Shown: in pieces, positions 50,234 through 51,331 of the stretch
How positions within the stretch are numbered: position 1 is the stretch's first letter
Layout: each line of letters begins with the position of its first letter
Assembly: GCF_003334335.1 (NCBI RefSeq)
Contig: NZ_QOWQ01000002.1
Source: Escherichia coli
GTDB taxonomy: Bacteria; Pseudomonadota; Gammaproteobacteria; Enterobacterales; Enterobacteriaceae
DNA length: 64,000 bases
Reading direction: 5' to 3' (one strand)
The notes under the pieces: model-generated
What the model was told of the DNA's origin: nothing
Seen by the model: the letters and a program-made list of their open reading frames with translations, nothing else
Database searches by the model: none
Made by a program: the position numbers and the translations under genes

Positions 50234-50419
50234 TTAGTGGTTATTCGCTGCCAGATCGGCTTCGCTTAGCTGGGTGGCCGCGAGCACCTGGTCACGATCA
50301 AAGCCCTGTTCCAGCATGCGCAAAGCAATTTTAATGGCTTGTTCATGCAAACCTTCTAATTTACCTTCCTGCCAGCCAATTTGATGTCCTTCCTGCCGCA
50401 GCCGTTCAGCAATAGTCAT
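50234..50419 (-). CDS. ypaA: Small protein YpaA, free-standing paralog of the RpnB C-terminal module
   Basis: 61 aa; near-identical to the last 56 aa of the adjacent rpnB product except a 4-residue insertion; preceded by the same AAGGAGAG SD. Confidence 0.7.
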   Translation of the reverse strand: MTIAERLRQEGHQIGWQEGKLEGLHEQAIKIALRMLEQGFDRDQVLAATQLSEADLAANNH

Positions 50420-50431
50420 TAATCTCTCCTT

Positions 50432-50602
50432 TTAATGACAGTTCGGAATATCAGCATCAGTGAGTTGGGTTGTCGCCAGCACAATCTCACGTTCAAAGCC
50501 CTGCTCCAGCATGCGCAAAGCAATTTTAATGGCTTGTTCATGCATACCTTCCTGCCAGCCAATTTGATGCCCTTCCTGCCGTAGCCGTTCAGCAATAGTC
50601 AT
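50432..50602 (-). CDS. Candidate intragenic small protein (RpnS-type) from an internal in-frame ATG of rpnB
   Basis: In-frame ATG (minus 50600-50602, MTIAERLRQ) preceded 7-8 nt upstream by AAGGAGAG inside the rpnB coding sequence; the same SD+ATG is duplicated at ypaA. Confidence 0.45.
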
Positions 50603-51331
50603 TAATCTCTCCTTTTGTAGTGGTGAACGTTCGGCAATCTCCTCAATAAAACGGGTGAAACGGGAGGTATCGCCGCATTGCAGCAGATAATTAAACAGTG
50701 TTTGTAGCTGGCTGTCATTAGTGAAGCCTCTAACCAAAAGCGTGGTGATCCTGTCGACCATGCCGATTAAATCGCGGTCGCGAATATGCTTTTGAATCAG
50801 TTCCAGCAGAGCTATACGCCGATGTTGCATGATCTCATCGTCAGGTACGATGGTGATATCCACCAACGGAAAAGCTTCGGTGTACAACTGCCGGGCAAGT
50901 TGCGGATCGTCAAACTCATCCAGCCAGTTGAGTGAGTACGGGTAAGGCGAGGTTTCGCCATGATAAAACAGCAACGGCACCACCAGCGGGACTCTGTCAT
51001 AGCCTTTGTCCAGGTGACGCTGCATGGCGGCAGTGGCATAGCGCATTAGCCGAAAAGCCATATTCTTTTCTGCAGAGCTTTGATGTTCAATCACGCAGTA
51101 GATATAGCCGTCACCGTCGCTGGTTTCCACGGACCACAAAACATCCGAGTAGTAAGCGCGTAAACTTTTTTCAATAAAACTAGTGGGTTCCAGGCGTAAG
51201 GTTTGCAGGTTGCAAAGCTTGCGCAGTGGTTCTGGTAAATGTATTTCGAGAAAATCCCGTGCGGTTTCGGGTGTGAACATAAAGGTTTTAAATACCGCAT
51301 CATGCGGGGAGGAGGTTGTTGATTCGGTCAT
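50432..51331 (-). CDS. rpnB: Rpn-family (YhgA-like) recombination-promoting nuclease RpnB
   Basis: 299 aa; formerly yfaD, transposase_31-like; family assignment from recollection. Confidence 0.85.

Follow-up and report, generated by a model that had tools for sequence, protein, structure and literature searches.

The rpnE–ypaA locus of Escherichia coli: a putative antitoxin gene inside an Rpn-family nuclease gene and its tandem downstream copy

All five rpn genes of Escherichia coli show Ribo-RET peaks at in-frame internal starts (Meydan et al., 2019; 10.1101/520783), and the short C-terminal products RpnA-S and RpnB-S specifically block their own long proteins, RpnL (Zhong et al., 2023, PNAS; PMC10400941). 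In the plasmid system RpnP2, the long protein RpnP2-L is toxic without RpnP2-S, which likewise blocks its cognate RpnL, and RpnP2 is the only system for which antiphage defence has been shown (PMC10400941). RpnA forms an L2S2 complex and inhibition of its nuclease has been seen in vitro (PMC10400941); the crystal structure of RpnA-S itself (PDB 7TH0) shows a dimer with a three-helix bundle fold. The number of four-residue repeats in helix 1 varies among all RpnS proteins, 'including RpnSs', and one repeat added to RpnC-S or RpnC-L abolishes neutralization unless it is present in both partners (PMC10400941). RpnA to RpnD are toxic on overexpression whereas RpnE is not: in the only tests published, all in vivo, cells overexpressing it showed neither toxicity nor SOS induction nor recombination (Kingston, 2017; PMC5350276).

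The internal start of rpnE has been mapped by Ribo-RET and Onc112, and the resemblance of its internal product to the independent gene ypaA was pointed out by Meydan et al. (10.1101/520783). RpnE-L, RpnE-S and YpaA have all been detected by immunoblot of chromosomal SPA-tag fusions in work that described YpaA as a second, downstream copy of RpnE-S and renamed it RpnE-Ss (Zhong et al., 2023). According to the same authors, such downstream Ss copies have independent origins, each from its own rpn gene, and can be lost through deletion or through fusion with the N-terminal part of rpn (PMC10400941). A first-pass annotation of the DNA analysed here had cited a report of C-terminal RpnS antitoxins made from internal starts of rpn genes; that report is real and covers this very locus (PMC10400941, 10.1101/520783). 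The locus described below is thus the published E. coli rpnE–ypaA gene-within-a-gene nuclease/antitoxin locus and the finding is already known. We take the translation of its three products from the literature, while its anatomy, gene identity, population distribution and ancestral states come from the present analysis. As a whole, the locus is best explained as an Rpn toxin–antitoxin and candidate antiphage module, a reading to which we assign a probability of about 0.85.

The window, a 64,000-nt stretch of E. coli contig NZ_QOWQ01000002.1, carries on its minus strand a 299-aa coding sequence (50432..51331) that encodes the full-length protein RpnE-L. The name rpnB, initially given to this gene, had to be rejected: RpnB is YfcI and RpnE is YfaD (Kingston, 2017; PMC5350276), and both RefSeq and the NCBIfam equivalog model NF007418 give rpnE. 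The 299-aa protein scored 699.5 bits against NF007418 (cutoff 583) and 173.5 bits against TIGR01784 (cutoff 52.1), and stayed under the cutoff of the NCBIfam model for RpnA. The domain of the Rpn family, the N-terminal Transposase_31 / PD-(D/E)XK nuclease domain (PF04754, E = 7e-88), covers residues 8–209 (50705..51310, minus strand). The Pfam-A profile search placed no domain on the C-terminal module of RpnE; the newer family PF27070 spans the Rpn C-terminal module and is carried by every small RpnS-like homologue. The 61-aa protein encoded downstream matches UniProt YPAA_ECOLI exactly. Searches with megablast found the rpnE region in 5421 of 5426 complete E. coli genomes, chromosomal every time, with the gene order glpC–rpnE–(ypaA)–yfaU; the RefSeq records that give a gene name call it rpnE.

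Product labels in the databases vary. The RefSeq label of rpnE itself is 'ISNCY family transposase'. In most RefSeq E. coli genomes PGAP treats ypaA as a pseudogene ('hypothetical protein; incomplete; missing N-terminus'), despite the experimental detection of the protein, and newer records name YpaA 'Rpn/YhgA-type helix-turn-helix domain-containing protein'.

The internal Shine-Dalgarno (SD) sequence and ATG that had been noticed in the supposed rpnB are present as described and belong to rpnE. The SD sequence AAGGAGAG (50607..50614, minus strand) lies in codons K240-E241-R242 and precedes the internal ATG of M244 (50602-50600, minus strand), which is in frame with the 299-aa ORF. The arrangement is AAGGAGAG-N4-ATG, with 6 nt from the end of the GGAG core to the ATG. 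The claim that the last 171 nt of the gene open with an in-frame ATG (MTIAERLRQ) also held: they encode a peptide of 56 aa, MTIAERLRQ...PNCH, followed by the stop codon (rpnE-S, 50432..50602, minus strand). The gene thus has the hallmark of an intragenic RpnL/RpnS pair, an in-frame SD and start some 45–90 codons before the stop. M244, K240 and E241 carry the same residue numbers as the ribosome-binding site and internal start (iTIS) that were mutated in RpnA.

Comparison of 80 Rpn loci, one genome per species, showed that 73 have a start of the type M-T/S-[LIMV]-[AL] 40–100 codons before the stop. An SD core, defined as GGAG, GAGG or AGGA located 5–16 nt upstream, precedes this homologous Met in 67 of these 73 loci vs 7.2% of other in-frame positions in the same genes; as the loci are mutually related, the 67/73 figure does not reflect independent samples. 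The residues encoded at the SD differ from locus to locus (KE, EE, GE, GD, QE), which suggests that the internal SD has been selected at the nucleotide level. As for transcription, simple scans found no sigma-70 consensus within rpnE at the threshold used, the best site under relaxed rules having 7 of 12 matches, so the case for an internal promoter comes entirely from the published dRNA-seq data as cited. The cited literature attributes RpnE-S mainly to a shorter, more abundant internal transcript.

The SD and the short ORF behind it are repeated immediately downstream. The first-pass annotation had proposed a direct duplication of about 190 bp, and the repeat finder and an explicit alignment bear this out as a tandem copy of 183/195 nt. 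A 23-mer, AAGGAGAGATTAATGACTATTGC, has exactly two copies within the 64-kb window, at 50592-50614 and 50409-50431, its expected count being 0.00 (100 shuffles of the window). The repeat finder reported the direct repeat in two parts, one of 72 nt with 97% identity and a spacing of 183 nt, the other of 102 nt with 84% identity and a spacing of 195 nt. According to the alignment, the 12-nt difference in spacing corresponds to the four codons KLEG (ypaA codons 20-23; 50351..50362, minus strand). Together with a 3-nt indel close to the C-terminus, it accounts for the lengths of 61 vs 56 aa. RpnE-S and YpaA share 46 of 56 aligned residues (82%) both in the window and in NCM3722; the Meydan preprint gives 98% identity.

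Unit 1 (SD and rpnE-S, 183 nt) occupies 50434..50616 and unit 2 (SD and ypaA) 50234..50433, both on the minus strand. The first two bases of unit 2 are the last two of the rpnE stop codon, TAA, so that the units abut, with a 2-nt overlap. With its start 14 nt before the internal ATG, the duplicated unit carried the SD along, and since it ends at a stop codon the copy was translatable at once as a free-standing gene. The ypaA SD, again AAGGAGAG, lies at 50424..50431, and the ypaA (rpnE-Ss) CDS of 61 aa at 50234..50419, its ATG 12 nt from the rpnE stop (all minus strand). Differences between the copies are concentrated at the 3′ end: besides the 12-nt unit, four positions differ in the first ~130 nt, vs ~22 positions in the last ~65 nt, where the differences include at least seven synonymous codons. 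The near-identity of the 5′ 130 nt does not speak for gene conversion, since species resemble one another to a similar degree over this stretch.

The interval from the rpnE stop to the ypaA start contains no hairpin. The sole terminator-like element downstream of the two genes is a GC-rich hairpin at 50200..50226 (strand not assigned), beyond ypaA and between the convergent genes ypaA and yfaU; an Rfam search of 48000-53000 gave no match. The copied unit has no promoter of its own, has its ATG 12 nt behind the rpnE stop and is followed, not preceded, by the hairpin, so ypaA is probably co-transcribed with rpnE-S and rpnE, and its translation is possibly coupled to that of the upstream gene. 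Two antisense ORFs of 35–36 aa with almost the same sequence, at 50274-50384 and 50460-50567 (plus strand), mirror the duplicated unit and show no sign of being genes.

An AlphaFold model of YpaA, built on a 37-sequence alignment (mean pLDDT 75, pTM 0.50), has helices at residues 3–37, 42–49 and 53–57, which places KLEG (residues 20–23) inside helix 1. In a Foldseek search of the PDB with this model, RpnA-S (7TH0) ranked first, with a probability of 1.00, E = 0.018, a TM score of 0.73 relative to the target and 42% identity. It was also matched by phmmer (E = 3e-4), with an alignment gap exactly over the repeat region. The predicted fold of YpaA is thus the three-helix fold of RpnS proteins, with a long first helix that bears the repeats.

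The 12-bp insertion adding KLEG, noted at the outset, is real; it is, however, one unit of a hypervariable repeat and not a one-off indel. Among the alleles sampled, the number of extra four-residue units in helix 1 ranges from 0 to 8. In the 14 duplicated loci sampled, which include the window and K-12 and represent eight different pairs of intact alleles and a ninth pair in which rpnE is frameshifted, the in-gene/ypaA counts are 0/1 (window and K-12), 5/1, 1/4, 8/4, 5/0, 6/2 in two different pairs (one of them the pair with the frameshifted rpnE), 5/1 with another ypaA variant and, in E2348/69, 4/4. The counts are therefore mismatched in seven of the eight distinct intact pairs. The hypothesis that they always differ was rejected on account of E2348/69, and with 0–8 units to draw on, chance alone would leave most pairs mismatched; 7/8 is within chance.

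We found two types of C-terminal tail. Type A, F-EREIVLA[TA]TQL[TS]DADIPN[CG][HY], ends the in-gene copy in each of the 14 sampled loci that have the duplication and lies at 50432..50497 (minus strand) in rpnE and rpnE-S of the window. Type B, [FI]DRD[QL]VLAATQLSE[AT]DLAA[NK]NH, is that of ypaA in 14/14 and lies at 50234..50302 (minus strand; ...FDRDQVLAATQLSEADLAANNH). About one third of the nucleotides differ between the two types, synonymous sites included. The duplication junction was compared across E. coli genomes, as the first-pass annotation had proposed: in 3132 of 5426 complete genomes the query, which runs from the rpnE stop into the ypaA start, is matched over its full length, and in the others it matches just the half that is also present at the internal site. 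The second copy is accordingly missing from about 42% of complete E. coli genomes. The type-A 66-mer of the window is present in 3132 genomes, equal to the junction count, and the type-B 69-mer in 5407 of the 5426. The four single-copy E. coli sampled (QML220614 from yak, O157:H7, O104:H4 and PCP07014) all have type B, and two cryptic Escherichia clades, E. whittamii and E. albertii have single-copy rpnE orthologues, whose tails are all B-like. From E. coli to the cryptic clades the B tail keeps 95.6% identity, less divergence than separates the tails of the two copies.

With B the sole tail in the outgroups and present in 5407/5426 genomes, this comparison of tails indicates that the module in ypaA is ancestral and the one inside rpnE derived, the reverse of the original description of ypaA as the diverged copy. 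A donor of the type-A tail was sought among the 80 Rpn loci from other species and none was found, the lone match being L023, a single-copy allele in which an A-like first half of the tail is followed by a B-like second half, as expected for collapse of the duplication by a crossover within the tail. Another single-copy chimera, L002, in which an rpnE-type 5′ part is followed by a B tail, resembles a collapse whose crossover lay farther upstream than in L023. Type A arose either by fast divergence in situ or by import.

These observations can be assembled into a mechanism modelled on the better-studied paralogs. RpnE-L joins a PD-(D/E)XK nuclease domain to a C-terminal three-helix oligomerization domain, and the strong SD and ATG at codon 244 allow this second domain to be made separately as the 56-aa RpnE-S. 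By homology with RpnA, RpnB and RpnP2, RpnE-S would bind the identical domain of RpnE-L to give an L2S2 complex in which the nuclease is held inactive; it is from these homologues that we infer toxicity of RpnE-L and antitoxin activity of RpnE-S; for the specificity of YpaA the analogy is with RpnC. Tandem duplication of the 183-nt unit produced ypaA, with KLEG as one of the hypervariable units of helix 1, the kind of repeat that in RpnC sets the pairing between S and L. Residues D11, D63, E82, Q84, R94 and D165 of RpnE (PDDEI) stand at the same numbers as the residues mutated in RpnA (PMC5350276), an equivalence that reflects collinear numbering rather than a direct alignment to RpnA. With these residues and M244/K240-E241 kept, the RpnE-L nuclease could be active but masked by RpnE-S. 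The RpnE construct of 2017 also held the internal start, and masking by RpnE-S may explain its inactivity. PADLOC 2.0.0 gave no match on the locus and has no model for this system.

The role of YpaA leaves more room for alternatives. An altered specificity of YpaA, raised in the first-pass annotation, is plausible: the K-12-type protein, which has one extra unit and ends in a B tail, may be a poor partner for an RpnE-L that lacks the extra unit and ends in an A tail. It is conceivable, although we consider it rather unlikely, that YpaA is not the cognate antitoxin of the RpnE-L of this strain and that the displaced ancestral module has been kept as a cassette of alternative specificity, either recombining with the in-gene copy and so swapping or resetting the shared interface, or neutralizing B-type RpnE. 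The in-gene module would then have been replaced, or have rapidly diverged to type A, leaving YpaA mismatched in tail and repeats in most strains. This fits the ancestral B tail of ypaA, the sole type in the outgroups, and the occurrence of the type-A tail in as many genomes as the duplication. It also fits the difference of one helix-1 unit in the window, the unequal counts in seven of eight pairs and the loss of RpnC neutralization on a one-repeat difference (PMC10400941), as do the collapsed and chimeric single-copy alleles L002 and L023 and the published losses by fusion (PMC10400941). However, the 4/4 pair of E2348/69 means that mismatch is no rule, the range of 0–8 units makes chance mismatch likely in most pairs, and up to residue 36 of the 56 aligned the two copies agree except for M20/L24 and KLEG, so that cross-dimerization may persist. 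If such a cassette exists, recombination with it could reset toxin and antitoxin together. The more definite claim, that ypaA stores a non-cognate specificity as a cassette, or guards against B-type RpnE, and is not a redundant second antitoxin, strikes us as doubtful, more so than the broader possibility.

Could ypaA instead be a decaying by-product of the duplication, a pseudogene fragment with no function of its own? The annotation in most RefSeq records as incomplete and missing its N-terminus says so, and some 42% of complete genomes do without a second copy. Yet ORF, SD and ATG of ypaA are intact in 14/14 duplicated loci sampled, the protein has been detected in vivo (PMC10400941), the ypaA tails differ at ~6 synonymous and 5 non-synonymous sites (counted by eye), which weakly suggests purifying selection, and the B tail of E. 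coli has kept 95.6% identity to that of the cryptic clades; decay is thus improbable. Still further from our expectation, and in our judgement very improbable, is that the main role of RpnE-S and YpaA is that of small DNA-binding regulators of helix-turn-helix type, such as autoregulators of rpnE, and not that of protein antitoxins. The HHpred similarity to HTH motifs reported by Zhong et al. (2023; PMC10400941), the helix-turn-helix domain in the newer PGAP name of YpaA and weak Foldseek matches to Trp-repressor and DeoR-like domains (E ≥ 1) point that way, but Foldseek matches besides 7TH0 are not significant, and for the paralog RpnA both the RpnA-S–RpnA-L complex and nuclease inhibition in vitro have been shown (PMC10400941). 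RpnE-L toxicity, YpaA pairing and the equal counts of A tail and duplication bear on the evolution of specificity in systems whose toxin and antitoxin are read from common codons, but would leave the general picture as it is.

Some relatives of the locus have lost parts of it. In E. coli UTME-10 (L009, 3252-4577) an IS2 insertion disrupts rpnE and in E. coli MB10 (L011, 374-1344) rpnE is frameshifted, while the downstream SD and ypaA ORF are intact in both; with rpnE broken in these two, the long nuclease gene is dispensable in some lineages. In O104:H4 (L005) and L009, yfaU is a truncated pseudogene followed by yfaY, which suggests deletion of the yfaV-side rhamnonate genes beside rpnE.

Set against known systems, the locus resembles RpnA, RpnB, RpnC and RpnP2 in its PF04754 nuclease, its internal SD and ATG at M244 and its three-helix C-terminal module. 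It differs from K-12 RpnA-S, which has no helix-1 repeat units and lacks 12 residues of YpaA in the phmmer alignment. The stand-alone RpnS-like genes (DUF4351 / PF14261, PF27070; rpnC-Ss), located beside rpn genes or away from them, resemble ypaA in encoding the Rpn C-terminal module on its own downstream of an rpn gene. Independent cases of such a downstream module were seen in the rpnC-like locus of E. coli SCPM-O-B-8794 (L081, 3430-3700) and in Rahnella bruchi (L062, 3439-3850), both with a downstream repeat number unlike that of the in-gene copy. The copies differ in position: that of rpnE–ypaA overlaps the stop by 2 nt, whereas those of L081 and L062 lie ~40–75 nt and ~260 nt past it.

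The general lessons of rpnE–ypaA have already been published: it is a textbook-grade case of an antitoxin inside a toxin gene, and of a duplication that, by starting just before an internal ribosome-binding site, gives a new small gene in one step. What is new here is the frequency of the duplication, the ancestral tail of ypaA, the equal counts of A tail and duplication, and the collapsed and chimeric alleles; these additions are refinements and represent no new kind of system. In the K-12 derivative NCM3722, RpnE-S and YpaA are identical in sequence to those of the window and the DNA identity across the region is 99.8%. Its internal start, its downstream copy and the variation in four-residue repeats have been described before (PMC10400941, 10.1101/520783), and the RpnE-L/RpnE-S/RpnE-Ss system of K-12 is the same locus, from which the window shows no structural difference.
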